In this document: positions 7,838-59,995 of the stretch, in pieces
Position numbering within the stretch: position 1 is the first letter of the stretch
Layout of the letters: every line of letters starts with the position of its first letter
NCBI GenBank assembly: GCA_944358355.1
Contig: CALVQY010000001.1
Coordinates: 1-61,468 of the forward strand
Reading direction: 5' to 3'
Source of the DNA: an uncultured Bacilli bacterium
Lineage (GTDB): Bacteria > Bacillota_I > Bacilli_A > RF39 > UBA660
Length of the DNA stretch: 61,468 nt
Made by a program: the position numbers and the translations under genes
Notes under the pieces: generated by a model
What the model saw: only the letters and a program-made list of their open reading frames with translations
What the model was told of the DNA's origin: nothing
The model's database searches: none

Positions 7838-8178
7838 AATACTTAATAAGCCATGTTCTGTACCTATCTCTAGGTGACAAGTATCTATCTACTATTTCTA
7901 GTCCTTAGAAAGATTCATTTCTCTTATCTAAAGCTCCCCTACCATAATTTGGGTTTCTCACTCGTGGGGTTTACCGCGTTTCACTTTTTAGTTTCCTAAA
8001 AAATCGTCACTGTGGCACTGTTTAGAACACCATAGATTACTCCTTAGGTATTCTTATTGCCGTTAGTGTCTAAGACACTACCTTAAGTTATTTTTTCCTT
8101 AAGCACGAACACTACATTCAAATCTCAGAATGTGTGAGCATGGACTTTCCTCTAGAATAAAAATTCCAGCACTTGTCT
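7838..8178 (-). ncRNA. rnpB: RNase P RNA, bacterial type B
   Basis: The reverse strand contains the universal motifs GAGGAAAGTCCATGCTC, AGTGCCACAGTGACGA, ACGCGGTAAACCCC, GAGAAACCCAAAT..GGTAGGGGA and ACAGAACATGGCTTA, in the same order as B. subtilis rnpB. The ends are approximate to about 15 nt. Confidence 0.9.
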
Positions 8179-8184
8179 AAAGCA

Positions 8185-13572: not shown

Positions 13573-14197
13573 ATAATTCTACAGGTTCTTTAATTTCTTT
13601 CTTCTTATTATTTAAGAAATGTCTAACCTCTTCCCCTGTCTTTAACCCTTTCTTATCCCATTCATATAAAATTTTATCAATATATCTAATACTTGAAACG
13701 CCATTTAACATTGCTTCTTTTACTGCTTCTATAATAATATCACTACTAAAATTACTAGACCAAGCTTTAATAAATTCTATTTCACTAGGACTTAAAGTTC
13801 TGCCAAATTCCTTCTCTATTGCTGAAAAAACATTACTATCAACTTGCTTTTCTAAACTATTATTATCCTCCAATATAACAGCAGCAAGTCTTTCATAAAA
13901 TAAACTTAAATCAACCTTTTCTTCAACAATTCCTTTATCATTTTTCACTGTACTTATCAATAAAAGTTTTTTATCACTTAAAGAAGAAATAAGTTCTAGG
14001 ACTTTAATTGTATCATAACCAAGTTCTAAAGCAATTTGTGAAGGATCAAAAAGAAATAAATTACCTTTCCCTCTCAAATACATAAGAAAAATAAATTCTT
14101 CTAAGCTTATATTTAGCGCTTTATATCTTCTATAGAAGTCTAAAGGTACAACTATATTCCCATCCATTAGTAAATTAATTAGATGCTTCTCTCTCAT
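13535..14197 (-). CDS. dnaD: DnaD-domain replication initiation / membrane attachment protein
   Basis: 220 aa. C-terminal DnaD/DnaB_2 repeat (EKEFGRTLSPSEIEFIKAW...IRYIDKILYEW). dnaD-nth adjacency as in Bacillus. Confidence 0.8.
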   Translation of the reverse strand: MREKHLINLLMDGNIVVPLDFYRRYKALNISLEEFIFLMYLRGKGNLFLFDPSQIALELGYDTIKVLELISSLSDKKLLLISTVKNDKGIVEEKVDLSLFYERLAAVILEDNNSLEKQVDSNVFSAIEKEFGRTLSPSEIEFIKAWSSNFSSDIIIEAVKEAMLNGVSSIRYIDKILYEWDKKGLKTGEEVRHFLNNKKKEIKEPVELFDYDWFDEDEEE

Positions 14198-15314
14198 TAA
14201 GTTCCTCCTTTTTTACTACTAAATTAGTATATATCCTTTTAACTGCAAAAAGCAACTTATTTCTTTCATTATCAACACTACCATTAAGAACTTCCTTTTC
14301 TAACACTTTCCAAATATCACTTAAAATAGGATCTTCTTTTATATTTAAGGAATTCATAATATCATAAGAATCTATTAATATATCACTTCTTTTATGAATA
14401 TTCATAGATTTATATACTTTCATTACTTTTCTTTTATTTATACCTAAAATCTCAGCTGCTACACTACATACATATAACCCGTAATAATAAAGCTTATCTT
14501 TACTGAGTGGACTATCATTCATAACAATTCTTATTTCTTTCATAAGTTGTAATTCATTTCTTGTAAAAGGATATATATCATCAACATTTAATACTGTCCA
14601 AACACCAATAACTTGACTGCAATTCTTAACTTTATCTAAGTTTTTAAGTTGTAATACATCCTCAAAATTTAAAAACTTTAGTAGATTAAGTCCTATATCA
14701 ATATTAACACTACTAAATATCTTATCAAGCTCTTCTTTTTTTCTATGAATTGACAAATTTTTAAGTAAATATTTATTTTCTTTAATCGCTTCAACTACTG
14801 CTGAAGAAAGTTCAAATTTTAAAGTAGTAGCAAACCTAACAGCTCTTAATATCCTAAGAGCATCAGTCGCAAAGGACTCCATAGGATCAATTATTGTTTG
14901 AATAATTCTTTTATTTATATCCTTTTTAAAGTCTAATAAATCAATGATATTTCCCTTTTTATCCATACATATTGCATTAATTGTAAAATCTCTTCTTTTC
15001 AAATCTGTAATTAAGTCATTAACATAAGTAATCTCTAAAGGGTGTCTATTATCCAAATAATAGTTTTCTTTCCTATAAGTAGTAATTTCAAATTTTATAT
15101 TATTATAATATATAGTAACAGAACCATACAACTCATTATCAACATTTGCATTAGGAAATATTTTAATTAAATCCTTAGGTTTAGCATTAGTAGTAATATC
15201 AACATCATTAGATTTAATTCCCATTATATAGTCACGAACAAATCCTCCTACAATGTATGCTTCATAAGAATTATCTTCAATTATATTTAAAACTTTTAAA
15301 GCCGTATCTAACAT
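14175..15314 (-). CDS. cca: CCA-adding tRNA nucleotidyltransferase
   Basis: 379 aa. Pol-beta NTase head motif GGFVRDYIMGIKSNDVDITT and RRDFTINA. Confidence 0.88.
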   Translation of the reverse strand: MLDTALKVLNIIEDNSYEAYIVGGFVRDYIMGIKSNDVDITTNAKPKDLIKIFPNANVDNELYGSVTIYYNNIKFEITTYRKENYYLDNRHPLEITYVNDLITDLKRRDFTINAICMDKKGNIIDLLDFKKDINKRIIQTIIDPMESFATDALRILRAVRFATTLKFELSSAVVEAIKENKYLLKNLSIHRKKEELDKIFSSVNIDIGLNLLKFLNFEDVLQLKNLDKVKNCSQVIGVWTVLNVDDIYPFTRNELQLMKEIRIVMNDSPLSKDKLYYYGLYVCSVAAEILGINKRKVMKVYKSMNIHKRSDILIDSYDIMNSLNIKEDPILSDIWKVLEKEVLNGSVDNERNKLLFAVKRIYTNLVVKKEELNEREASN

Positions 15315-16049: not shown

Positions 16050-17681
16050 TCAATTATTTGGTATTTGTAGTACTTGACCAATAGAAAGTAAATTAGATGT
16101 TAAATTATTTAAAGTTTTAATAGCATCAACTGTAGTTCCAAATTTATTAGCAATACTCCATAAACTATCACCTGAGGCTACTGTATAGGTAGTATAAGTA
16201 GGATTAGTTGGAAAATTAGAGCCTGCTGTAGGAATAATTAGTACTTGTCCAATTGAAAGTAAATTAGATGTCAAACTATTTGCAGATTTTAAATTATTAA
16301 CAGTAACACCAAAACGATTTGCTATACTCCATAAACTATCACCTGAGGCTACTGTATAAGTAGTAGGAACTGTTACGTTATCTTCACTATCTTCTAAATC
16401 ATCTCCAGCACTGATTCCAGGTATAATTAATGATTGGCCTATACTTAAAGTATCACTAACTAAATCATTAGCATCTTTTATCTCTTGTACAGTAACTCCA
16501 AAACGTCTTGCTATACTCCAAAGACTATCTCCTCTTCCTACTGTATAATAAAATACTGCCCCATTTTCTTCACCATTATCTTCTTCATTAGTTCCTGGAA
16601 TAAGTAAAACTTGTCCTACACTTAAAGTATCACTAGTTAATTTATTAAGATCTCTTATTTGTTGAACCGTTACTCCAAATCTATTACCAATACTCCATAA
16701 GCTATCTCCCTTTACTACTGTATAAGGAAAAGATGGCCCTGTAATATTATCATTACCTTCATTACCATTACTTACACCCGGAATTATTAATACTTGTCCT
16801 ATACTCAAGGTATCACTAGTTAAATTGTTAGCTTGCCTTAAATCATTAACACTTATTCCATAACGACTTGCTATACTCCATAAACTATCACCTCTTTGCA
16901 CAGTATAAGTAACATTACCACTTGGAGGAACATTTCCATTATTACTTGGTATCCTTAAAACCTGTCCAACACTTAAGGTATCACTAGTTAAATTGTTAGC
17001 ATCTCTTAAAGCTTGTACAGTTACTCCATATCTTCTAGCAATACTATAAAGACTATCACCTTTTACTACTGTATAGAAATTATTACTACTACCTTCAGGT
17101 GGAATATAAGTAACACCAGCGTACTCTGCAATCGCTCTAACTACTGCTTCTACATAATTTAATAAATCATTTTGTAATTTAACTCTATCATTAGCATTAT
17201 CAATAAAACCATATTCAACTAATAATGATTGCATAGGAGAAGTTTCTCTAATAATATAATAATAATCTTTAGAAGGATCTTCAGGAAGTCTTCTCTGATA
17301 ATACTTACGCATAATTTGTCCTTCACTACCTATCTCTTCTAAGATAGACTGTGCTAAAGTAGAATTATTACGTAAAGCATAAATAACTTCTGCTCCTTCT
17401 CCGCCACCTGCATTTATATGATTAGAAATAAGTATAGCATTACTACTACCTCCAAAAGCTTCATTAGCACGTCTAAGACGATCTTCTCTACTTAAATTCT
17501 CATCATAATCTCTAGTTAAAACAGCAGGTATCCCTAATTCTCGTAATCTATCATACATATATAGCGATGCTTCTAATGTAAAGTCTTTCTCTTGTAAACC
17601 ATTAGAAACAGCACCAGGATCAGCACCCCCGTGTGAAGGAAGCAGAAAGTCCCAAATATTAAATATTATTCTAAAATTCAA
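16050..17681 (-). CDS. N-acetylmuramoyl-L-alanine amidase (Amidase_3) with six C-terminal LysM repeats; this is the 3' segment of a gene split by the element to its right
   Basis: The catalytic domain starts abruptly at ..PSHGGADPGAVSNGLQEKDF. The first ~16 codons of the track ORF (MNFRIIFNIWDFLLPS) are element-derived and overlap the recombinase stop. There are six repeats of YTV..GDSLWSIA.RFGVTV..L...N.L.S..L.IGQ.L.IP. The genuine N-terminus lies at 32834-32793. Confidence 0.9.
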   Translation of the reverse strand: MNFRIIFNIWDFLLPSHGGADPGAVSNGLQEKDFTLEASLYMYDRLRELGIPAVLTRDYDENLSREDRLRRANEAFGGSSNAILISNHINAGGGEGAEVIYALRNNSTLAQSILEEIGSEGQIMRKYYQRRLPEDPSKDYYYIIRETSPMQSLLVEYGFIDNANDRVKLQNDLLNYVEAVVRAIAEYAGVTYIPPEGSSNNFYTVVKGDSLYSIARRYGVTVQALRDANNLTSDTLSVGQVLRIPSNNGNVPPSGNVTYTVQRGDSLWSIASRYGISVNDLRQANNLTSDTLSIGQVLIIPGVSNGNEGNDNITGPSFPYTVVKGDSLWSIGNRFGVTVQQIRDLNKLTSDTLSVGQVLLIPGTNEEDNGEENGAVFYYTVGRGDSLWSIARRFGVTVQEIKDANDLVSDTLSIGQSLIIPGISAGDDLEDSEDNVTVPTTYTVASGDSLWSIANRFGVTVNNLKSANSLTSNLLSIGQVLIIPTAGSNFPTNPTYTTYTVASGDSLWSIANKFGTTVDAIKTLNNLTSNLLSIGQVLQIPNN

Positions 17682-19266
17682 AGTTCCATTCTATTTCAAT
17701 ATCTCTTGATTTAGTTTCTTTATCATAAACTCCTATATAAACCTTATCAATAAATTCATCTACTATTACTTTATTTAACTTACTTATATGTTTATATTTC
17801 TTTAAAATATCTTTTGCTTGTTTCTTATTATCAAGTCTCTGCTTTAAAGATTCTATTTCTTCATCTATTATAGAAACTCTTCTATTCATCTCTTCTATTT
17901 CTTTAGTATAATCACTTGATAACATCTTAAACATATCTTCAGTTATTACAAAATTAGCTTTATCTTCATAAAGTTTTCTATAATACGTTTTCTCTTCTTC
18001 TATTTTCCTATTAAGTAAAACCTTTTCTTGTTCTAGTATCTGAATTTCTTCATCATTTGTATTTTTAGATTCTCTGATGTTATATTCATTTTCTAGCTTT
18101 TCTTTATCATAATAGTTATCTAGTAAATCATTAATAGCATTTAATAAAACTTCTTCTAACTCATCTAACCTTATCGCTTTATTATTACAACAATTATGAA
18201 ATCTTCTAACACCCTTACATTGTAAATATGCTCTTTTACCATCCTTTACATTATAAACATTTCTCATAAATACCTTTTTACAGTTAAGACAATACACTTT
18301 TTTACTTAAGAAATGTATTTCACCTGATTTAATAGGGCATTCATGACTAGCAAGTCTTTTCTGTACCTTTTCCCAAGTATCTTTAGAAATAATAGACTCA
18401 TGAGCATTTTCTATTCTACACCAATCTTTTTTAGGTACAGTTTTAAACTTATGAACTTTATATCCTAAAGATGTTTTTTTACCCTGTACTAAATTACCAA
18501 TATATACTTCATTCCTAAGAATTTTTGCAATTGTATCATTAGTCCAACGCACACTATCATAATCGCAAGTTCCAGATACATACTTACTTCCATTTTGCTT
18601 TTTATATAAAGCTGGTGTTAAGACGTTAGCATTATTTAAATATTCGCTTATCTTATAATACCCATAACCATTCTCATACATTTTAAAAATATCTTTCACA
18701 ACTTTACTAGCGACAGGATCAATAACTAACTTATGTTTATCTTCACTACTTCTCATATAACCATAAGGTGCAAAACTACCCATAAATAAGCCATCTTCTC
18801 TTTTATTCTTTAATGATTTCTTAATATTTTGTGATAAGTCATCTAAATACCATTCATTTATTAGCCCATTAATTTGTCTTGATTTCTTATTAGATTCAAT
18901 ATTAGTATCAGCATTATCCACAATACTAACAAATCTAACATTCCATAGGGTGAACTTATTATGTAAGTATTTTTCTATTATCTCCATGTCTCTTGAAAAC
19001 CTAGATTGTGTTTTACATAAAACTAAATTAATTCTACCACTTTCACAATCTTTAATTAATCGTTCAAATTCAGGTCTATAAGTACCTGCCCCAGAGAAAT
19101 CATCATCAGAATAAATATCTACAACATCCCAGCCTTGCTTAAGAGCATATTTAATACACATACTCCTTTGATTTACAATACTATCACTATCATCATTCTT
19201 ATTAGCTTTAAACCTATCTTCATCAGATAATCTACAATATACACCTACCTTTTCTATCATAGCCAT
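17671..19266 (-). CDS. large serine recombinase (resolvase domain + recombinase domain + zinc ribbon + coiled coil)
   Basis: 531 aa. N-terminal catalytic block VGVYCRLSDEDR, NQR and the resolvase core. Cys-rich ribbon C-x2-C...C...C (CLNCKKVF..LQCKG..HNCCN). Long C-terminal coiled coil, as in the SpoIVCA and phage integrase class. Confidence 0.9.
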   Translation of the reverse strand: MAMIEKVGVYCRLSDEDRFKANKNDDSDSIVNQRSMCIKYALKQGWDVVDIYSDDDFSGAGTYRPEFERLIKDCESGRINLVLCKTQSRFSRDMEIIEKYLHNKFTLWNVRFVSIVDNADTNIESNKKSRQINGLINEWYLDDLSQNIKKSLKNKREDGLFMGSFAPYGYMRSSEDKHKLVIDPVASKVVKDIFKMYENGYGYYKISEYLNNANVLTPALYKKQNGSKYVSGTCDYDSVRWTNDTIAKILRNEVYIGNLVQGKKTSLGYKVHKFKTVPKKDWCRIENAHESIISKDTWEKVQKRLASHECPIKSGEIHFLSKKVYCLNCKKVFMRNVYNVKDGKRAYLQCKGVRRFHNCCNNKAIRLDELEEVLLNAINDLLDNYYDKEKLENEYNIRESKNTNDEEIQILEQEKVLLNRKIEEEKTYYRKLYEDKANFVITEDMFKMLSSDYTKEIEEMNRRVSIIDEEIESLKQRLDNKKQAKDILKKYKHISKLNKVIVDEFIDKVYIGVYDKETKSRDIEIEWNFEF

Positions 19267-23558: not shown

Positions 23559-23981
23559 CTACAATTCTATAAATTCATTATTATAAGCTTTCATTATCAT
23601 ATCTTTTGCTAAAATATCAATATCATCTAAATCTTCAATTTTAACTTTTTTAATCTCATAAAAATTTTCTTCGCAACATCTTTTCAATTCCTCTCCTCCT
23701 AACATTGGTGTTCCTGTTACTATTTTACAACTAAAAAAATGTGCAATTGAGTCATTTCCTTCATCTACTCCTAAATACCCAATAATATCAACATCCACGG
23801 AAAACTCCTCTTTTAATTCACGTTTTACATTTTCTTCCAAAGTTTCACCTTGCTTTATCCCACCTCCAGGTATTACATAGTATTCTTTTATACTTCCATC
23901 CTCTTTAATTCTCCTTCTAAACATAGCATACACTTTATCACCATCTATTATAATACCACGCGCACTTACTCTTTTTTCCAT
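23559..23981 (-). CDS. NUDIX hydrolase
   Basis: 140 aa. Nudix box GGGIKQGETLEENVKRELKEEFSV (G-x5-E-x7-REUxEExGU). Confidence 0.9.
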   Translation of the reverse strand: MEKRVSARGIIIDGDKVYAMFRRRIKEDGSIKEYYVIPGGGIKQGETLEENVKRELKEEFSVDVDIIGYLGVDEGNDSIAHFFSCKIVTGTPMLGGEELKRCCEENFYEIKKVKIEDLDDIDILAKDMIMKAYNNEFIEL

Positions 23982-25636
23982 TGTTTATCCTCCTTTAATT
24001 CTTCACTGATTAATGCCAACACAGTTTCACCAAAAAACAAAATATTATGTTGGACTTCTATAGGGTTTTTAATAGCATAGATTATATCAAAATCTGCTAT
24101 TTTTGTCAAAGTGTTTATCTTTCCAATTTCTTTCAAATATTTTTTCAAATCATTAAGTACTCTTTCATATCCGAAAGAAAATATTCTCTTTGTATTTAAA
24201 AAACATTTTATTAATACAAGTAACTTTTTTAAATACTTTTTATCAATACTAACTTTATTGTTAATTATATCTATATGTAACCTTCTACATTCGTGTAATA
24301 CATTAGGCAAATTTTCTGTATCATTTTGTACAATATAGCTATAATCAATTTTATTTTTTATAATTTTTCCATATAAAGTTGGATTTACTTGATAGTTTTG
24401 TTTTTCATAAAGCATAACTTTTGTTTTACCATCTATCCACCCAGTATTAAATTCGTTTTTTGAATATACTGTTAACCCTATATGAATTTTAAATTTTTCC
24501 AATTTTTTAGTAAAAATAACAACTTCATTTACTACATATTTATTCAATATTATATATATATCTATATCTGAACAACCAACTACAATTTCATTTTTCCCAC
24601 CAGAGCCTCCTAAAATAATGCAACTAAGATTATCCTTGAATTGATTAATTGCTAATTGCACTGTAGCTTTAATAGTTATTTTATATTCTAATGGAAAATT
24701 TATATACTTATACTTTTTTAAGATACTATCAATTTTAATAGAGATATTATTAGATTTTTCTACTATAATTTTATCAATCAAACCCTTAAGAGAAAAATTT
24801 ATATTTTCTTTTACATAAGAATCTAAATGATTATATTTTATATTTAATCTTTTATAAAAATATTCTACTATTTTTATTTTGTCTTCTTGTAAAATATTAG
24901 ACTTTAAAAATAAATCTACTAAATTATAAGTGTGTAATATAAAATCATTCATTCGATTAATTTCAGATTGATAATCGTTCTTTGTTACAGCACTATTCTC
25001 TCTTTTTATATACTTATATAACTCTATATTATTTGAAGAAACTGTAGGAGAATTAAAAATTAAAATAGGCATCATCCCATAATCTTCATGTAATGTATTT
25101 TCCAAAAACGATAAATTTGTTTGACAGAAATTTTCTCTATTTATAACATATGACCAAGGTGTTGCAAAAATCCTATTAGATTCACAAAAATATAATAATG
25201 CTTTTAACCCATCTATATTATCAAAGTATGGTAAATCAAAACGACAATCATACTCTTTGTTTTCAACACATTGTACAGAGCATTTTAATAAATCAACAGG
25301 ATATTGTTTTAAATAATTATCAACTTTAACTATTGAATTAGGCACTAACTCATCATCAGAATCTAAAAAAATAAAATAATCACCATGACATTTAGATATA
25401 CCAATATTTCTAGCGACAGAAATACCCTGATGAGAAATTTTATAGTAATTAATTATTTTAGATAAATTATTTTGCCTAATAAATTGCAAAACAACTTCAC
25501 TAGACAAATCTTCAGAGCCATCATCAATAATAACTATTTCTATATCATTAGACTGTTTCAAAACAGATTTAATACTATTTAATATGGTATTTTCTGAATT
25601 ATACATAGGAATAACAATACTATATCTATATTTCAT
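23966..25636 (-). CDS. fusion protein: N-terminal family-2 glycosyltransferase + C-terminal Pol-beta-superfamily nucleotidyltransferase-like domain
   Basis: 556 aa. GT2: YSIVIPMYNSE...VIIDDGSEDLS...FLDSDDE. C-terminal half: ILGGSGGKNEIVVGCSDIDIYIIL fits the hG[GS]-x9-13-D-h-D-h minimal NTase signature and is followed by a helical region. Confidence 0.7.
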   Translation of the reverse strand: MKYRYSIVIPMYNSENTILNSIKSVLKQSNDIEIVIIDDGSEDLSSEVVLQFIRQNNLSKIINYYKISHQGISVARNIGISKCHGDYFIFLDSDDELVPNSIVKVDNYLKQYPVDLLKCSVQCVENKEYDCRFDLPYFDNIDGLKALLYFCESNRIFATPWSYVINRENFCQTNLSFLENTLHEDYGMMPILIFNSPTVSSNNIELYKYIKRENSAVTKNDYQSEINRMNDFILHTYNLVDLFLKSNILQEDKIKIVEYFYKRLNIKYNHLDSYVKENINFSLKGLIDKIIVEKSNNISIKIDSILKKYKYINFPLEYKITIKATVQLAINQFKDNLSCIILGGSGGKNEIVVGCSDIDIYIILNKYVVNEVVIFTKKLEKFKIHIGLTVYSKNEFNTGWIDGKTKVMLYEKQNYQVNPTLYGKIIKNKIDYSYIVQNDTENLPNVLHECRRLHIDIINNKVSIDKKYLKKLLVLIKCFLNTKRIFSFGYERVLNDLKKYLKEIGKINTLTKIADFDIIYAIKNPIEVQHNILFFGETVLALISEELKEDKQWKKE

Positions 25637-26261
25637 TTTTTAACACCTTCATTAACCTTTTTTCATTAATTACATCTTCATTATTTAATATTTTAACACT
25701 GTGTTTTATTTCATCTAAACTATTAGGATTAGGACCATGAATTTGATTGAAAAATATCATTTTATATGCTGAATCATCATAAAGAAAATTAGCAGGAAAT
25801 TTTTTTATATCAACCTTTAGTCCCGACAAATCAATATCATATAATGGTTTGTCAAAAGTTATATCATCTTCATTTAAAAATTTTAAATAGTATAAATCAG
25901 TATTACTTACATACTTTTTTCTTATATCCTTCTTTAATTGATATAATTTTTGTAATGATGTGGTTATATTATCATTATTTATATCATTTATATTAAAAAG
26001 AACAACAATTCCATTATTTTTAGGATAAATATGATAATAACCCATAATAGATGTGAGCAATTTTTTTCGAAGTTCTAAACAATTACCACTACTCATCATA
26101 ACATCATATTCATATATCATAGATGCTATTTTTGTCCAATTATCCATATAATATAATTTAATACTTTTAATATTTTCAATATTAATTACATTTTTAAAAT
26201 AATATCTAAGTGATACCTCATTGTTAAGAGCATCTGGTTTTATAATATTAATTACATTCAT
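25626..26261 (-). CDS. divergent nucleoside-diphosphate-kinase-like protein
   Basis: 211 aa. N-terminal IIKPDA and C-terminal NQIHGPNPNSLDEIKHSVKIL mirror the NDK motifs (M/I)IKPDG and N.IHGSDS...A..EI..WF, with a ~60-aa insertion between them. By-eye assignment only. Confidence 0.45.
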   Translation of the reverse strand: MNVINIIKPDALNNEVSLRYYFKNVINIENIKSIKLYYMDNWTKIASMIYEYDVMMSSGNCLELRKKLLTSIMGYYHIYPKNNGIVVLFNINDINNDNITTSLQKLYQLKKDIRKKYVSNTDLYYLKFLNEDDITFDKPLYDIDLSGLKVDIKKFPANFLYDDSAYKMIFFNQIHGPNPNSLDEIKHSVKILNNEDVINEKRLMKVLKNEI

Positions 26262-28067: not shown

Positions 28068-28121
28068 TTATATCCACCTCTTTGCCAAAAAGGTTTGGTG
28101 ATATAACCAAACTTAAAAAAT

Positions 28122-28150
28122 ATAATAATAACATACTACATTTTTGTCAA
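28122..28150 (-). promoter_or_regulatory. sigma-A-type promoter of the SDR-to-helD operon
   Basis: The minus strand reads TTGACA (28150-28145), a 17-nt spacer, then TATTAT (28127-28122). The leader contains a small hairpin TTTGGT..ACCAAA followed by CCTTTTT before the RBS AGAGGTGGA. Confidence 0.6.
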
Positions 28151-29594: not shown

Positions 29595-29630
29595 AACTAG
29601 CATCTATAAAAGTATGCTAGTTTTATTATA
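29595..29630. terminator. bidirectional terminator between the 28994-29569 gene and mob
   Basis: AACTAGCAT (29595-29603) pairs with ATGCTAGTT (29614-29622), followed by TTTATT. Confidence 0.7.
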
Positions 29631-30897
29631 AACTTAATTCATCATCGTTAGATATATCATAGCCGTCATTATAATTTATACCTACATAATCAAATAGTTC
29701 ATCTTCTTTACTAGTATTATTAGCAATATCATAAACATCATCTTGATTAAAGTCATTATTGTCATAATAGTCCTTAATTTCGCCTGTAACAACATCTTTT
29801 GTAATTTCATTACCAATTTGTAATAACTTTCTAAAAAATGTCTTTATCGCCTTTAAAATAGCATTAATATAATCTCTTAACTTATTATTCTCTATTATAA
29901 GGTTACTATTTCTAGTTTTAAGATACTTTATTTCTCTTTGATATTTTTTGTTTTCTTTATCTAAAGAATTATAACTATTTACATAACTATTAATAACATT
30001 AAATACTTGCTCTATTTTAGGCTGTAACTCTTTAACCTTTTTAGTTTCCATAATAACCATATTCATAGTATCAAAAGTATCTTTTTCAACAACAATATGT
30101 TTCTTATCAAAAGGAATAGTTTTAGAAGTTTTCATTTGTTCTTCTAACTTATTCATAGCCTTATCTAATCTTTCATTTCTAGTATTTAAGTTCTGTTCCA
30201 ATTTTCTATTAATATTCTTATAGTCTTTAATCTTAATGTGCTTTCTATCACTACCTTTAATACCACGTTCTAAATCATAACCTTTATCTATTAATCTTTT
30301 ATGATATTTATCTTGTAATTCTGATAAATGAATATTATCTTTAATATATTGTTTCTTAGATATAGTATATCTTTCTGTTTTAGTTCTATTATCAAACTTT
30401 CTAACTAAAGGAACAACTACACAATGAATATGAGGTGTTTTCTCGTCCAGATGAATTACACTATGTAAAACTTGTTCTTTTTTATAACCCAAATCTTCAT
30501 AAACAAATTCCATACAAGTATTAGCCCACTCTTTTATATCATCTATTGTCATATTATCAAAAAATTCAGATGTAGCAGTAAATAATAATTCATCTGCAAC
30601 TACATTTCTTGACTTATCTAACATCTGTTTAAAAGTTTTCTTTCTATCTTCACGTTCTGTTTTCATTCTCTCATCATGTTCTTTTTTATATTCTTTAGTT
30701 AAATTATAAAAACCCTTAACATATTTATCTGTCAAGGATACTAATTCAATATTATTCTTACTTAAATTTTTATTTATATCAGGATTGGAATTATAAGCTT
30801 TCTTCTCCCTTTTATTATGAGAACCTATTTGTGCTAAATCATTTAATGTAAAAATAGGCTCACTTCTAAATATTGCATAATTTAAATTTATAAATAT
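29626..30897 (-). CDS. mob: MobV-family (Mob_Pre) relaxase; the conserved N-terminus lies upstream of the first canonical start
   Basis: HxDE..PHxH motif IHLDEKTPHIHCVVVPL. The in-frame extension 30736-30897 encodes ..NYAIFRSEPIFTLNDLAQIGSHNKREKKAYNSNPDINKNLSKNNIEL, matching the MobV motif I/II region (MSYxVxR...HNxR...N.DI). No ATG, GTG or TTG occurs between the TAG at 30898-30900 and the TTG at 30735. Confidence 0.8.
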   Translation of the reverse strand: MFINLNYAIFRSEPIFTLNDLAQIGSHNKREKKAYNSNPDINKNLSKNNIELVSLTDKYVKGFYNLTKEYKKEHDERMKTEREDRKKTFKQMLDKSRNVVADELLFTATSEFFDNMTIDDIKEWANTCMEFVYEDLGYKKEQVLHSVIHLDEKTPHIHCVVVPLVRKFDNRTKTERYTISKKQYIKDNIHLSELQDKYHKRLIDKGYDLERGIKGSDRKHIKIKDYKNINRKLEQNLNTRNERLDKAMNKLEEQMKTSKTIPFDKKHIVVEKDTFDTMNMVIMETKKVKELQPKIEQVFNVINSYVNSYNSLDKENKKYQREIKYLKTRNSNLIIENNKLRDYINAILKAIKTFFRKLLQIGNEITKDVVTGEIKDYYDNNDFNQDDVYDIANNTSKEDELFDYVGINYNDGYDISNDDELSL

Positions 30898-30929: not shown

Positions 30930-32675
30930 TTATTTATTATTAACCAACGGTTCATACTGCTGTAATGAATTAATTCTATATTCTACTAATTTATTAATTT
31001 TTAAACTATTAACATATAAATTAAATTCAACTTTATATTCTTCGTTCATTCTTTTATAAAATAATTCCCATATTTCTAAAAACCATGACCACGTATTTTC
31101 ATCAATCTCATTAGATAAATCAGGAACTAAATAATTATTATTTCTACAAATCTTAATAAATTCTTCTTGTACTATTTCTTTATCATTATCAATAAAACGA
31201 GAATCCAACCATTCTAATAAACTACAATCATATTCTAAGTTCTTAAAAGTTTTCTCAATATTTAATAATTTATCACTTAAGTATTTTGTTTTAATCTTGT
31301 CATTATATTCAATTGCTAAATCACTTAAAATTTTAGATTCTTTAAACTTAAAACCAAATAACTTTATTTTATTCTCATAAATACTTTTATTTACATCATA
31401 ATAATTCTTAAACATAATATCGAAAAAAACAGAAGCTACTTCATCTAAATTTAGATTTAATTCTAATGCACTATTCCATATAAGTATTTCATAAAAATCA
31501 TTAATAAATATATCTAATGTAATAAACTTATACTTACCATTTTTCATATGTTTATAAAGATTATTAATTTTGAAAGTTATTTTATCAATAGATAAATAAA
31601 ATTTATCTTTTTCATTAGGTTTCTTCTCTTCCAAGTAACTATCAATAGTTTTATTTAGTTTATTTTTTAAATCTGCACTATATTCACATTTGTATATATC
31701 TAATATATAATTTAAAATACAGGTGTCATCATTATTACTAAATACAGAATTAAAATAATGATTCATAATTCTAGAATTAATTTCTTCATCAATTACATAT
31801 TTAAAAGAATCATTATCATCTCTTTTCTCATCTGGCTTATAAACTTCTTCAGTACATTCAATAGCAACGGACATACAATTCTTCAGAACTAACAAATTAA
31901 CTTTCTTATTTTCTTTTATTTCAACATAATTATTAATTACTTCCTTAAATAAATTAATTCCTTTTATTATTGTACGTAAATTTCTAATATCATGTTTTTT
32001 TATATAATCATTAATAAAAGGAGTTACTTCTATTTCTTCGATATAACTACATATTTCACTAGTTACTAAATTTCTTATAGATTCATCAGAAAATTTTTGT
32101 ATTTTATATTCCTTTTCTATAATTTTTTCTTTAAACCTATTCCATTTTTTTCTATCACTATCAATCATATTATTTTCATCACCAATAATAACTATCTTCA
32201 CTTTATTAAATTGTGAAAATTCCTCAATCATCCCCATAATATCTTCAATTAAAATATTATTACTTTTTCGTTCTAAATCATCTATTACAATAATTAATGA
32301 TTTAGACTCTAATAAAGTACTATATTCAGATATCAAACCTTTTCTAGACAACTCAGGAGAATTTATGGTAAAGCCACAAATTGAAAAAGAAGCTTTAACA
32401 TTTTTAACAAATTTATGTAATATTATTTTCTTTTTATTCAATGAACTTAACTTTTTAAACAACTCTCTTGCTACACTATTTTCAATAGAATCAAAACTAG
32501 TTTTTCCAAATAAAGTTATATATATAAAATTTTCATTATGTTCTTTTATATATTTATTTACATAATAACTCTTACCTATACCCCAAGGACCATTAATAAA
32601 TATTTTCTTATAAGTATTATCATTATCTAATTGATTTAAAATTTCTAAAATAGCACTTGATTCCAACATAATCAC
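30930..32675 (-). CDS. KAP-family P-loop NTPase
   Basis: 581 aa. Walker A INGPWGIGKSYY and Walker B IVIDDLERK are typical KAP signatures, followed by a long helical C-terminal region. Confidence 0.75.
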   Translation of the reverse strand: MIMLESSAILEILNQLDNDNTYKKIFINGPWGIGKSYYVNKYIKEHNENFIYITLFGKTSFDSIENSVARELFKKLSSLNKKKIILHKFVKNVKASFSICGFTINSPELSRKGLISEYSTLLESKSLIIVIDDLERKSNNILIEDIMGMIEEFSQFNKVKIVIIGDENNMIDSDRKKWNRFKEKIIEKEYKIQKFSDESIRNLVTSEICSYIEEIEVTPFINDYIKKHDIRNLRTIIKGINLFKEVINNYVEIKENKKVNLLVLKNCMSVAIECTEEVYKPDEKRDDNDSFKYVIDEEINSRIMNHYFNSVFSNNDDTCILNYILDIYKCEYSADLKNKLNKTIDSYLEEKKPNEKDKFYLSIDKITFKINNLYKHMKNGKYKFITLDIFINDFYEILIWNSALELNLNLDEVASVFFDIMFKNYYDVNKSIYENKIKLFGFKFKESKILSDLAIEYNDKIKTKYLSDKLLNIEKTFKNLEYDCSLLEWLDSRFIDNDKEIVQEEFIKICRNNNYLVPDLSNEIDENTWSWFLEIWELFYKRMNEEYKVEFNLYVNSLKINKLVEYRINSLQQYEPLVNNK

Positions 32676-34903: not shown

Positions 34904-36046
34904 TTAGATATTATTCCATTTATATTTCGTATATCTTCCACCTGATATTTTACTTACTTTACCTTCTTTCAATAATCTACTTAATATTCTCTCAATAGTT
35001 ATTTCACTTAAATCTGGACATTTCTCTATTAGAAATGCTTTATCTATAGGAATAATATTCTCCTTAAAAATATTAATAATTCTCTCATATGATGTAACTT
35101 TTTTATTTCCTACAATATTAATTCTAGAATCAAATTCTTCATAAGCATTTAATATTATACCTAAATAGCACTCTACAAAATAAGAATAATCATTTTTATT
35201 ATCATGCCAATTTATTGAACTTTTTTCTAATGTATCATAATAAGTATATTTTGTATTTTCAATTATTTTTTCTATACTTATATATTTACCTACTAAATAA
35301 TCAGCTTTATATAGCAATAACAATGTTAATAATCTACTCATCCTTCCATTTCCATCATTAAATGGATGAATTGATACAAAATCTAATATAAATATTGGAA
35401 TTAATACTAATAAATCACAAGTCTCACTTACTACTAATTCATTATAACTTTTACACAATTCTTCAACTGCTATAGGTGTCTCAACAGGAGACAATGGTGT
35501 AAATCTTATTTTTCTTTCACCATTTTCATTTATTTCTTCAATATAATTTTGTGAATTTTTAAATTTACCACCATAACTATATCCAGAATATTTATATAAA
35601 TCTCTATGCAATTGTAAAATTGTATTTGGATTTATATCTATAAAATTATAGTTTTCATGTATTAAAGACAACACATCTCTATAACCTGCAATTTCCTCTT
35701 CATTTCTATTTTTAGGTTCAGTTTTTCGATTTACTATCTCTTTTAACCTTTTATCAGTAGTATAAATACCCTCAATTTTATTTGATGATGACGTACTTTG
35801 AATCTTGGCAATTTCTAGTAAAGTATCTAAAGTATCTTTTCTAGTTTCTAACAAAAAAGATTGTTTACCTTTATACTCATGAATTTTACTCATTAAGTTA
35901 ATAATATTACTATTAGATATAACAGTATTATATTCATTTAATAAATTAAATTTTCTCAAATTGCATCTTTCCCCTTTCATTTGCATCATTATAGCATAAA
36001 ATGATGCAATTATCAATGTGTTTGATGCAAATAAATTTACATGCAA
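34904..36046 (-). CDS. Fic-family protein (AMPylase/phosphocholine-transferase fold) with a C-terminal winged helix
   Basis: Fic motif HPFNDGNGRMSRLL. The track ORF start (36046) runs into repeat Y. A TTG at about 35959 or an ATG at about 35983-35989 behind AAGGGGAA is more likely. Confidence 0.85.
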   Translation of the reverse strand: MHVNLFASNTLIIASFYAIMMQMKGERCNLRKFNLLNEYNTVISNSNIINLMSKIHEYKGKQSFLLETRKDTLDTLLEIAKIQSTSSSNKIEGIYTTDKRLKEIVNRKTEPKNRNEEEIAGYRDVLSLIHENYNFIDINPNTILQLHRDLYKYSGYSYGGKFKNSQNYIEEINENGERKIRFTPLSPVETPIAVEELCKSYNELVVSETCDLLVLIPIFILDFVSIHPFNDGNGRMSRLLTLLLLYKADYLVGKYISIEKIIENTKYTYYDTLEKSSINWHDNKNDYSYFVECYLGIILNAYEEFDSRINIVGNKKVTSYERIINIFKENIIPIDKAFLIEKCPDLSEITIERILSRLLKEGKVSKISGGRYTKYKWNNI

Positions 36047-59921: not shown

Positions 59922-59995
59922 AGGGAATTAGTTTAATGGTAAAACTATGGTCTCCAAAACCATCGATAAGTGTTCGATTCACTTATTCCCTGCCA
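59922..59995 (+). tRNA. trnW: tRNA-Trp (anticodon CCA), CCA-encoded
   Basis: AGGGAAT-TA-GTTT-AATGGTA-AAAC-T-ATGGT-CTCCAAA-ACCAT-CGAT-AAGTG-TTCGATT-CACTT-ATTCCCT-G-CCA folds as a canonical 74-nt cloverleaf. Confidence 0.93.

Follow-up and report, generated by a model that had tools for sequence, protein, structure and literature searches.

Fusion of a family 2 glycosyltransferase to an antibiotic-nucleotidyltransferase-like module in a putatively mobile operon of uncultured gut Bacilli

Gene organisation of the locus

The DNA analysed here (the window) is a stretch of 61,468 nt, positions 1 to 61,468 of contig CALVQY010000001.1 (GenBank assembly GCA_944358355.1), from an uncultured Bacilli bacterium (RF39; UBA660) with a 1.5 Mb genome that is 93% complete; the G+C content of the window is ca. 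25%. A six-gene operon on its minus strand (Table 1) contains as fourth gene an open reading frame (ORF) that encodes a real two-domain fusion, in which a soluble GT-A-type glycosyltransferase of family 2 (GT2) is followed by a two-lobed, AadA-like nucleotidyltransferase (NTase) of the Pol-beta superfamily, resembling the antibiotic nucleotidyltransferases (ANTs).

The initial annotation had placed this ORF correctly and left its strand unstated. The uninterrupted frame of 556 aa lies on the minus strand, and a plus-strand reading was rejected because stop codons occur throughout. The same gene was found at 99.8-100% identity on an independent contig of a metagenome-assembled genome (MAG), "Candidatus Onthousia excrementipullorum" (Bacilli, chicken gut), and 10 additional clusters of 526-555 aa have the same GT2::NTase architecture; the fusion is therefore not an assembly artefact. 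The full-length AlphaFold model was of good quality (predicted local distance difference test, pLDDT, 87.4; predicted template modelling score, pTM, 0.83), and no transmembrane segment was detected (highest 19-aa Kyte-Doolittle mean 1.44). Judged by its intact motifs, one polypeptide may both nucleotidylate and glycosylate.

The six genes are tightly packed, with successive junctions of +13, -4, -11, -16 and +24 nt, the start of the NUDIX gene overlapping the fusion gene by 16 nt.

Table 1. Features of the window: the operon genes, the parts of the fusion gene (residue numbers refer to the 556-aa protein), and neighbouring and more distant features.
Feature	Position (nt)	Strand	Basis or remark
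Gene 1, classical short-chain dehydrogenase/reductase (SDR), 242 aa	27339-28067	-	Pfam adh_short 3e-36
Gene 2, APH/protein-kinase-like small-molecule kinase, 355 aa	26258-27325	-	hhalign, invariant residues
Gene 3, conserved 211-aa protein with NDK-like end motifs only	25626-26261	-	invariant residues
Gene 4, GT2::NTase fusion, 556 aa + stop	23966-25636	-	ORF, translation, predicted structure; position in six-gene operon
GT-A/GT2 catalytic domain, residues 1-220	24977-25636	-	Pfam PF00535 1.5e-28; Foldseek; motifs
Helical extension and linker, residues 221-311	24704-24976	-	model helices; Foldseek alignment span
Pol-beta NTase N-lobe, residues 312-425	24362-24703	-	secondary structure, conservation, ANT fold match, hhalign to AadA
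N-lobe motif GGS, 343-345	24602-24610	-	N-lobe motif
N-lobe motif SDID, 356-359	24560-24571	-	N-lobe motif
N-lobe strand beta3 HIGLTVYS, 385-392	24461-24484	-	N-lobe strand
Further N-lobe residues E395, D402-G-K-T405		-	family conservation
Helical NTase C-lobe, residues 426-556 (H448, R452, K470, K477, Y490 conserved)	23969-24361	-	all-helical model, AAD(9)/AadA matches
Gene 5, small MutT-like NUDIX hydrolase, 140 aa	23559-23981	-	Pfam NUDIX 2.3e-12
Gene 6, accessory HelD-type RNA-polymerase-recycling SF1 helicase, 730 aa	21342-23534	-	NCBIfam HelD_BACSU
Promoter-like site TTGACA-17-TATTAT, upstream of the SDR gene	28122-28150	-	consensus match 11/12
Large serine recombinase	17671-19266	-	Pfam Resolvase, Recombinase, Zn_ribbon_recom
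MobV relaxase	29626-30735	-	Pfam Mob_Pre 2.5e-25, NCBIfam MobV
KAP-family P-loop NTPase, same element	30930-32675	-	PADLOC candidate PDC-S49, 2.7e-29
RNase P RNA, class B	7842-8184		window feature
CCA-adding/poly(A)-polymerase-family enzyme	14175-15314		window feature
Fic-domain protein	34904-36046		window feature
tRNA (one)	59922-59992		window feature

Glycosyltransferase half

The N-terminal half (residues 1-311) is a soluble GT-A/GT2 enzyme of the inverting type, with intact motifs and a helical extension as in enzymes of the TarS/TarP/CgT type. Glycos_transf_2 (PF00535) was the only Pfam model above threshold in the fusion protein (residues 6-136, 100.3 bits against a cutoff of 23.3), and the motifs DDGS (38-41), DSDD (92-95) and HEDYG (183-187) are present. 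In a Foldseek search with the full-length model, CgT (5hea), TarS (5tzi/5tze), RmlT (8bz7) and TarP (6h21) were the top matches (E 3e-14 to 1e-12), and the GT-A/GT2 identity assigned initially to this half was thus upheld. The conserved H183-E184-D185-Y-G stretch is placed, by sequence spacing alone, at the distance expected for the equivalent of the base D178 of TarS or D181 of TarP. The alignments to CgT, TarS and TarP cover 306-355 columns and extend past the GT-A core into a region modelled as helices 222-244, 250-269, 273-278, 281-293 and 297-308 (pLDDT ca. 90).

The wall-teichoic-acid glycosyltransferases TarS, TarP and RmlT, and CgT, the GT2 domain of dGT1, an enzyme of Fap1 glycosylation, share with the fusion protein a soluble GT-A/GT2 domain with a DxD motif, followed by a helical acceptor-binding extension. 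They differ from it in sequence (15-21% identity) and in their C-terminal parts, which are assembly or binding domains where the fusion protein has its NTase; genes for the glycosylation of teichoic acids or serine-rich repeats are absent near the fusion gene.

Such relatives raise the question of whether the operon decorates an envelope glycopolymer. In that case a teichoic-acid-type polymer would be the acceptor of the TarS/TarP-like GT2, an activated nucleoside diphosphate (NDP)-alditol or NDP-sugar precursor would come from the SDR, kinase and NTase, and the mobile element that carries the operon would change phage receptors or antigenicity in the manner of prophage TarP. Besides the fold matches, PHROG matches to GtrB-like O-antigen conversion proteins agree with this proposal, as does a related locus (L012, see below) at which a GT2 and NTase pair stands beside murG-murB-ftsQ-ftsA; the combination of SDR and NTase is reminiscent of CDP-ribitol synthesis by TarIJ/Bcs1. 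We nevertheless consider it quite improbable, because the cassette lacks genes for a flippase, a polymerase, a membrane protein and a polyprenyl-phosphate enzyme, the GT2 is optional while the NUDIX gene is near-constant, the NTase has a fold other than that of sugar-phosphate nucleotidylyltransferases, and NUDIX, HelD and the kinase-NTase-NUDIX fusions described below would be left unexplained.

Nucleotidyltransferase module

The C-terminal module (residues 312-556) contains the string ILGGSGGKNEIVVGCSDIDIYIIL (residues 341-364). A short hG[GS]..DhD motif of this kind may arise by chance, and the identity of the module was therefore judged by conservation, by the Pfam scores of its relatives and by fold. 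On NTP_transf_2 (PF01909) the fusion protein stays below the cutoff of 21 (E 0.013, 16.3 bits); the distant relatives P0043, P0048, P0052, P0087, P0124 and P0058 score 22-26 bits, above the gathering score. When modelled alone, the module folds as an ordered NTase (pLDDT 89.2) with a helix-beta1-[GS loop]-beta2(DxD)-helix-beta3-helix-beta4 core and an all-helical lobe behind it; G344-S345 come after beta1 (337-343) and D357-I-D359 begin beta2 (358-364), which places the motif within the ordered core.

The closest fold match of the isolated module was AAD(9) (6sxj; Foldseek E 4.8e-7, template modelling (TM) scores 0.55/0.54, 272 columns), followed by AadA, ANT(3'')(9), ANT(4') and LinB. MNT structures matched the N-lobe only (82-154 columns, E 8e-3 or weaker), CD-NTase folds ranked 33rd or lower (E 0.02 or weaker), Tam41 was marginal, and the viral matches were generic uncharacterised NTases. 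No GlmU/RmlA-type enzyme appeared in the Pfam and NCBIfam scans or among the top 50 fold matches. The model confirms the C-terminal half as a two-lobed Pol-beta NTase of ANT type, not of GlmU/RmlA type. The initial annotation had likewise set the module apart from GlmU/RmlA and had described a Pol-beta NTase with a helical tail as in ANT, Lnu or MNT enzymes; the ANT/Lnu part of that description holds, and the MNT part does not extend beyond the N-lobe.

Sequence comparison was less informative. The C-terminal half gave no match to PDB sequences at E≤10 as a single sequence, and the family profile gave only local matches at E ca. 1; NCBIfam, its resistance-gene models included, returned nothing for this half. 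An OAS/CD-NTase lead, which came from those local matches of a GGSxGK..SDxD stretch, was dropped after the fold search and for want of the third acid. MNT-HEPN identity was ruled out, since the module has its own helical lobe and MNT structures cover the N-lobe alone; the annotated neighbours include no gene recognised as HEPN.

Active-site conservation and the third carboxylate

Conservation was assessed over 124 near-full-length family representatives. G344, S345, S356, D357 and D359 are 98-100% conserved; after beta3, position 395 is E or D in 91% and D402 is kept in 89%. K404, T405, H448, R452, K470, K477 and Y490 are also near-universal, conservation in the C-lobe (H448, R452, K470, K477, Y490) being 75-98%. 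The family keeps its NTP/Mg site (G344-S345, D357, D359) and, in the helical lobe, the basic residues R452, K470 and K477. The set comprising GS, S-D-x-D, G387, T389, D402, K404, R452, K470 and K477 is 87-100% conserved, stand-alone proteins included.

For comparison with AadA, sequences were taken from the PDB and the catalytic base, E87, was located within RAL-E-VTVV by means of the E87Q entry 5lpa versus wild type. Local hhalign of the 124-sequence profile against AadA (E 1.5e-4, probability 52%, 201 columns; global mode gave a probability of 0.2%, and the local alignment was used) placed GGS on YGS, SDIDI on SDIDL, G387 on E87 and T389 on T89. The G387/E87 pairing is consistent with a strand predicted at 386-392. 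Of the 124 representatives, 117 have Gly at position 387 and as many have K, H or R at position 385, giving a beta3 signature [K/H]-[I/V]-G-x-T-x-Y-[S/T]. The third acidic residue of the NTase triad, which the initial annotation had left to be looked for, is thus absent, and [K/H]-x-G takes its place family-wide; this is not a typical ANT active site.

Like AadA/ANT(3'')(9) and AAD(9)/ANT(9) (4cs6, 5g4a, 7uy4, 6sxj), the module combines a Pol-beta N-lobe with a helical C-lobe in ca. 250 aa, and it matches them over its whole length (Foldseek E 5e-7 to 1e-4, TM 0.52-0.57) with GS and SDIDL/SDIDI aligned. Unlike them, it shows only 11-14% identity and no significant HMMER match, has Gly in place of E87 behind a conserved Lys/His, and occurs fused to GT2, kinases or NUDIX within a multi-enzyme operon. 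The pattern of conservation indicates an active site that is under selection and differs from the one with which ANT enzymes nucleotidylate hydroxyls. At the position of the base, a basic residue and a glycine cavity would suit an anionic acceptor, for example a phosphate ester.

The loss of the third carboxylate could also mean that the module is inactive in this protein and serves the GT2 as an oligomerisation or ligand-binding domain. The sub-threshold NTP_transf_2 score fits this, and the C-terminal domains of TarS and RmlT are non-catalytic assembly domains. Yet the motif residues are conserved across the representatives, stand-alone proteins included, to a degree typical of a selected active site, and most family members have no GT2 to serve; we hold an inactive module to be very unlikely.

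Distribution and domain architectures of the family

A word-indexed search returned 16 clusters of homologues, and an exhaustive profile search 244 clusters at 50% identity (E≤1e-3). How widespread the fusion might be had been left to an architecture search: GT2::NTase proteins form 11 clusters at 90% identity (3 representatives at the 50% level), and their sources are without exception gut-type metagenomes or MAGs of uncultured Bacilli or "Mollicutes". The fusion is a rare minority state, and the GT2 is optional in the larger NTase family. About 100 members are stand-alone modules, ca. 30 carry one or two N-terminal P-loop kinase domains before the NTase, ca. 10 have a C-terminal NUDIX domain, and ca. 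2 have the order kinase-kinase-NTase-NUDIX (for example P0087, 806 aa). The large fusions, seen in P0087, P0124 (749 aa) and ca. 30 additional representatives, comprise a TMPK/dNK-like P-loop kinase, a second P-loop kinase, the NTase and NUDIX; they parallel the domain logic of NadR/NadM on a different NTase fold.

In a maximum-likelihood tree a single supported subclade holds the GT2-fused modules as well as stand-alone and NUDIX-fused ones, and at least two fusion or fission events are required. At four loci (L008, L009, L012, L045) a separate GT2 gene of 292-306 aa lies directly upstream of the NTase gene, and its product is 37-41% identical to the N-terminal half of the window protein; separate and fused GT2 and NTase stand in a classic Rosetta-stone relationship. 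The two ORFs are ca. 90 nt apart at L045, where an APH-like kinase with a fused N-terminal HAD-type phosphatase is also encoded (538 aa; L045:2647-4263). At L012 (2818-14143) the GT2 and NTase pair occurs without SDR, kinase or NUDIX, flanked on one side by a two-component system with a BceAB/MacB-type ABC transporter and on the other by murG-murB-ftsQ-ftsA.

Among 399 sampled genomes of the phylum, the source genome alone yielded the module, and 16 genomes of the same family yielded none; nor was there a match in 72,556 plasmids, 50,697 phage records or a viral contig collection. Pattern scans for loci gave 7 in the genome collection and 5 in metagenomes. No model in Pfam, NCBIfam, PHROG or PADLOC covers the C-terminal module or the GT2::NTase architecture, and literature searches for the fusion, its NTase module and the gene combination gave nothing specific; the initial remark that the architecture could not be named was apt. 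The NTase family, with its distinctive active-site signature, and the fusion architecture are undescribed in the curated models and the literature found.

Operon genes and their conservation

The gene order of the operon recurs in 13 loci with unrelated flanks. Its core consists of the SDR (kept in position in 8 loci), the APH-like kinase, the 211-aa protein, the NTase and NUDIX. The GT2 is fused in 2 loci, separate in 4 and absent from 6, the fused form occurring in the window, L005 and L006. HelD is confined to the closest relatives, following NUDIX in L001/2, L005, L006 and L045 only, and is absent from most cassettes. By fusion as well as by neighbourhood, the NTase is tied to kinases and NUDIX. 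No characterised counterpart of the operon was found.

The 355-aa protein had no Pfam or PDB sequence match, including with a 30-sequence profile against the PDB. The same profile aligned by hhalign with APH-family proteins of related genomes (probability 82-88%, E 1e-5 to 4e-7), with QGDPNTLNI on HGDxHxGNI and D203 on the Mg-binding Asp; its invariant residues (K31, E41, G188-D189-x4-N194, D203) match the catalytic set of the kinase fold, and the protein was accepted as an APH-like small-molecule kinase. The 211-aa protein had no Pfam, PDB or PHROG match; its invariant residues are K8-P9-D10, R114, N172 and H175. Identity as a nucleoside diphosphate kinase (NDK), suggested by IKPD...NxxH, was rejected because hhalign against real NDKs gave a probability of 0.4%. 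The source genome has no Pfam NDK (PF00334), which is present in some members of the same family. The NUDIX protein is closest among PDB sequences to MutT, MTH1, MutT2, NudI and a CTP pyrophosphohydrolase, all weak matches (6e-5 to 1e-2); it is fused to the NTase module in some relatives.

The HelD protein reaches 414 bits (cutoff 419) with NCBIfam's model of B. subtilis HelD and in this resembles the HelD/HelR helicases known from RNA-polymerase recycling and rifamycin protection, from which it differs in being an extra, mobile-element-borne paralogue. The genome contains two more HelD-like genes. One (L025:206-2371, on the 3.4-kb contig C92) is 68% identical to the operon copy; the other (L027/L028, contig C9) has a TAA stop within the match and may be split or broken. 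As far as our searches reached, the literature holds no description of a HelD gene co-transcribed with an NTase/NUDIX cassette.

Proposed pathway

Our preferred reading, to which we give a little less than an even chance, is that the operon processes a small molecule by phospho- and nucleotidyl transfer. The APH-like kinase (P-loop kinases in relatives) would phosphorylate a substrate X, and the NTase lobe would move a nucleoside monophosphate (NMP) from a nucleoside triphosphate (NTP) onto the phosphate of X to give an NDP-linked product. A phosphate acceptor requires no general base, and the K/H-x-G pocket would accordingly be able to accommodate it. Where present, the fused GT2 would glycosylate the same scaffold or take the NDP-linked product as donor, the fusion keeping the intermediate local. 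Turnover or clean-up would fall to NUDIX, as a hydrolase of the pyrophosphate bond or of a related NTP; the SDR would adjust a hydroxyl or keto group, and HelD would be a lineage-specific accessory. This scheme is supported by the domain assignments, by the conserved active site with its lost third carboxylate, by the profile comparison of the APH-like kinase, by the occurrence of GT2 and NTase both as neighbours and as a fusion, by the NTase-NUDIX, P-loop-kinase-NTase and kinase-kinase-NTase-NUDIX fusions, by the order conserved in 13 loci and by the overlapping or abutting genes.

There are precedents for both the fusions and the sequence of steps. In NAD metabolism, NadR is a ribosylnicotinamide kinase-adenylyltransferase and NadM an NMN adenylyltransferase-Nudix protein; the kinase forms the phosphorylated acceptor, the NTase the pyrophosphate-linked dinucleotide, and Nudix cleaves the dinucleotide (PMC9503650). 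The relatives of the module show the same pairings, in NTase-NUDIX, kinase-NTase and kinase-kinase-NTase-NUDIX proteins, whereas the adenylyltransferase of NadM/NadR is a Rossmann-like member of the HIGH superfamily, the module is of the Pol-beta/ANT fold, and nothing ties the cassette to NAD. The LicA/LicC/LicD and AmgK/MurU systems follow the succession of kinase, NTase and transferase. As there, an APH-family kinase gene stands in the operon beside those for an NTase and a group transferase, for phosphorylation, activation by NMP and transfer in turn; the NTases of those systems have the GlmU/RmlA/LicC fold, in contrast to the ANT-type enzyme described here, which is fused to the transferase and accompanied by NUDIX, SDR and HelD. 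A phage bifunctional sugar kinase/NTase feeds DNA glycosyltransferases (PMC13326640).

Several points weigh against this scheme. The activity, substrate and product assigned to the operon are predictions. About half of the cassettes lack the GT2, so the core role of the NTase cannot be to provide it with a donor, and HelD has no obvious role in a kinase-NTase-GT2-NUDIX scheme. The mapping of E87 onto G387 comes from an hhalign alignment of 52% probability and from predicted secondary structure, not from superposed coordinates, and E395 or D402 might provide the base from elsewhere. The P-loop kinases of the relatives are only weakly TMPK/dNK-like. To our knowledge, the characterised enzymes of this fold (ANT(3'')(9), ANT(9), ANT(4'), Lnu) all nucleotidylate antibiotic hydroxyls, not phosphates, and we know of no Pol-beta/ANT-type enzyme that makes NDP-sugars.

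A rival reading is the inactivation of antibiotics or other xenobiotics together with target protection, in which the ANT-like lobe would O-nucleotidylate, the GT2 glycosylate and the APH-like kinase phosphorylate a drug, with HelD clearing stalled polymerase, as actinobacterial HelR clears drug-stalled RNA polymerase; NUDIX would sanitise a toxic nucleotide form, and the element would spread a resistance island among animal-gut bacteria. The best fold matches are indeed resistance enzymes (AAD(9), AadA, ANT(4'), LinB), the operon combines an APH-family kinase with a HelD-type helicase that stands beside two other paralogues in the genome, the cassette is borne by a mobilizable element, sporadic (1 of 399 genomes) and of chicken-gut origin, and the L012 pair adjoins a BceAB-like ABC transporter and a two-component system. 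On the other side, the catalytic base of all characterised ANTs is Gly here, no NCBIfam resistance model was matched, the module does not occur in the 72,556 plasmids, and HelD is lacking in most cassettes. The fusions of the NTase to kinases and NUDIX, moreover, indicate sequential steps on one metabolite and not alternative modifications. On balance we judge inactivation unlikely, and retain phospho- and nucleotidyl transfer along one pathway as the better account.

Regulation, mobile element and wider context

The promoter-like site at 28122-28150 is likely to be the operon promoter, by its match to consensus. Between it and the SDR start codon (28067), a terminator-like hairpin with a T-run (28093-28112, minus strand) may be a structure in a 5' leader or may terminate an upstream 102-aa gene; no riboswitch or known RNA was found upstream of the operon here or at three homologous loci, and the hairpin had no Rfam match. 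A 12/12 sigma-70-like promoter with an extended -10 (TTGACA-17-TG-TATAAT; 24081-24109, minus strand) falls within the 3' portion of the fusion gene, ca. 100 nt upstream of the NUDIX start; in AT-rich DNA it is a consensus match alone, and could drive NUDIX-HelD independently of the upstream genes.

The gene content around the operon shows it as the predicted cargo of a mobilizable element of serine-recombinase/MobV type. The element also has XRE regulators and adjoins a LysM-amidase gene.

Wider cassettes centred on the 355-aa family contain, in addition, further NUDIX genes, kinases of TMPK-like and AAA_18 type, GT2, lactonase, histidine phosphatase, HAD phosphatase and a CYTH protein. At L013/L014 (7001-15000), operons of the 355-aa kinase family contain four NUDIX genes, a TMPK-like kinase, GT2, lactonase, histidine phosphatase and an AAA_18 kinase, hold a TehB-like methyltransferase as well, and adjoin XRE/TnpV mobile-element genes. 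A GT2-less cassette at L007 has, directly upstream of the SDR, a gene for a CYTH protein of 361 aa (L007:4669-5754) that reaches the NCBIfam cutoff for class IV adenylate cyclase (CyaB), itself preceded by a methyltransferase gene.

A nucleotide-centred conflict system, acting in phage defence or counter-defence, is another rival reading. At its centre would be a modified nucleotide, poisonous to transcription or replication, which the kinases, SDR, NTase and GT2 either synthesise or break down. Toxicity to the cell itself would be kept in check by NUDIX, and the host RNA polymerase would be rescued by HelD, by a logic akin to that of viperin with nucleotide kinases. Such a role would provide a rationale for HelD and would fit a rare, patchy, modular and mobile-element-borne cassette with a MutT-like, NTP-type NUDIX and, in its wider forms, multiple NUDIX and TMPK-like kinases; the KAP NTPase neighbour matches PADLOC PDC-S49, and the NUDIX protein PDC-S07 (3e-11). 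Validated defence systems, however, gave no match to any component, searches of phage genomes and viral contigs did not turn up the module, and an effector-like nuclease, pore or NADase is missing. The reading is speculative, and we think it improbable. A composite of it with our preferred chemistry is likewise doubtful: the module would represent a new Pol-beta/ANT-fold class that uses its K/H-x-G pocket to nucleotidylate a phosphate, giving an NDP-linked or dinucleotide product, within a nucleotide-analogue conflict operon that makes or neutralises a transcription poison while HelD rescues the polymerase.

Implications

Both halves of the fusion protein belong to well-known superfamilies; what is new is the fusion, an NTase active-site signature unlike that of every characterised ANT, and the surrounding operon. 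If the NTase does act on phosphorylated acceptors, the chemistry of the antibiotic-nucleotidyltransferase fold would be extended, and resistance annotation by fold alone would call for caution. The apparently mobile operon recurs in animal- and human-gut metagenomes and pairs small-molecule group transfer with an RNA-polymerase rescue factor; with these properties it would offer tractable access to a function of uncultured gut Bacilli, be it tied to a metabolite, to resistance or to defence.

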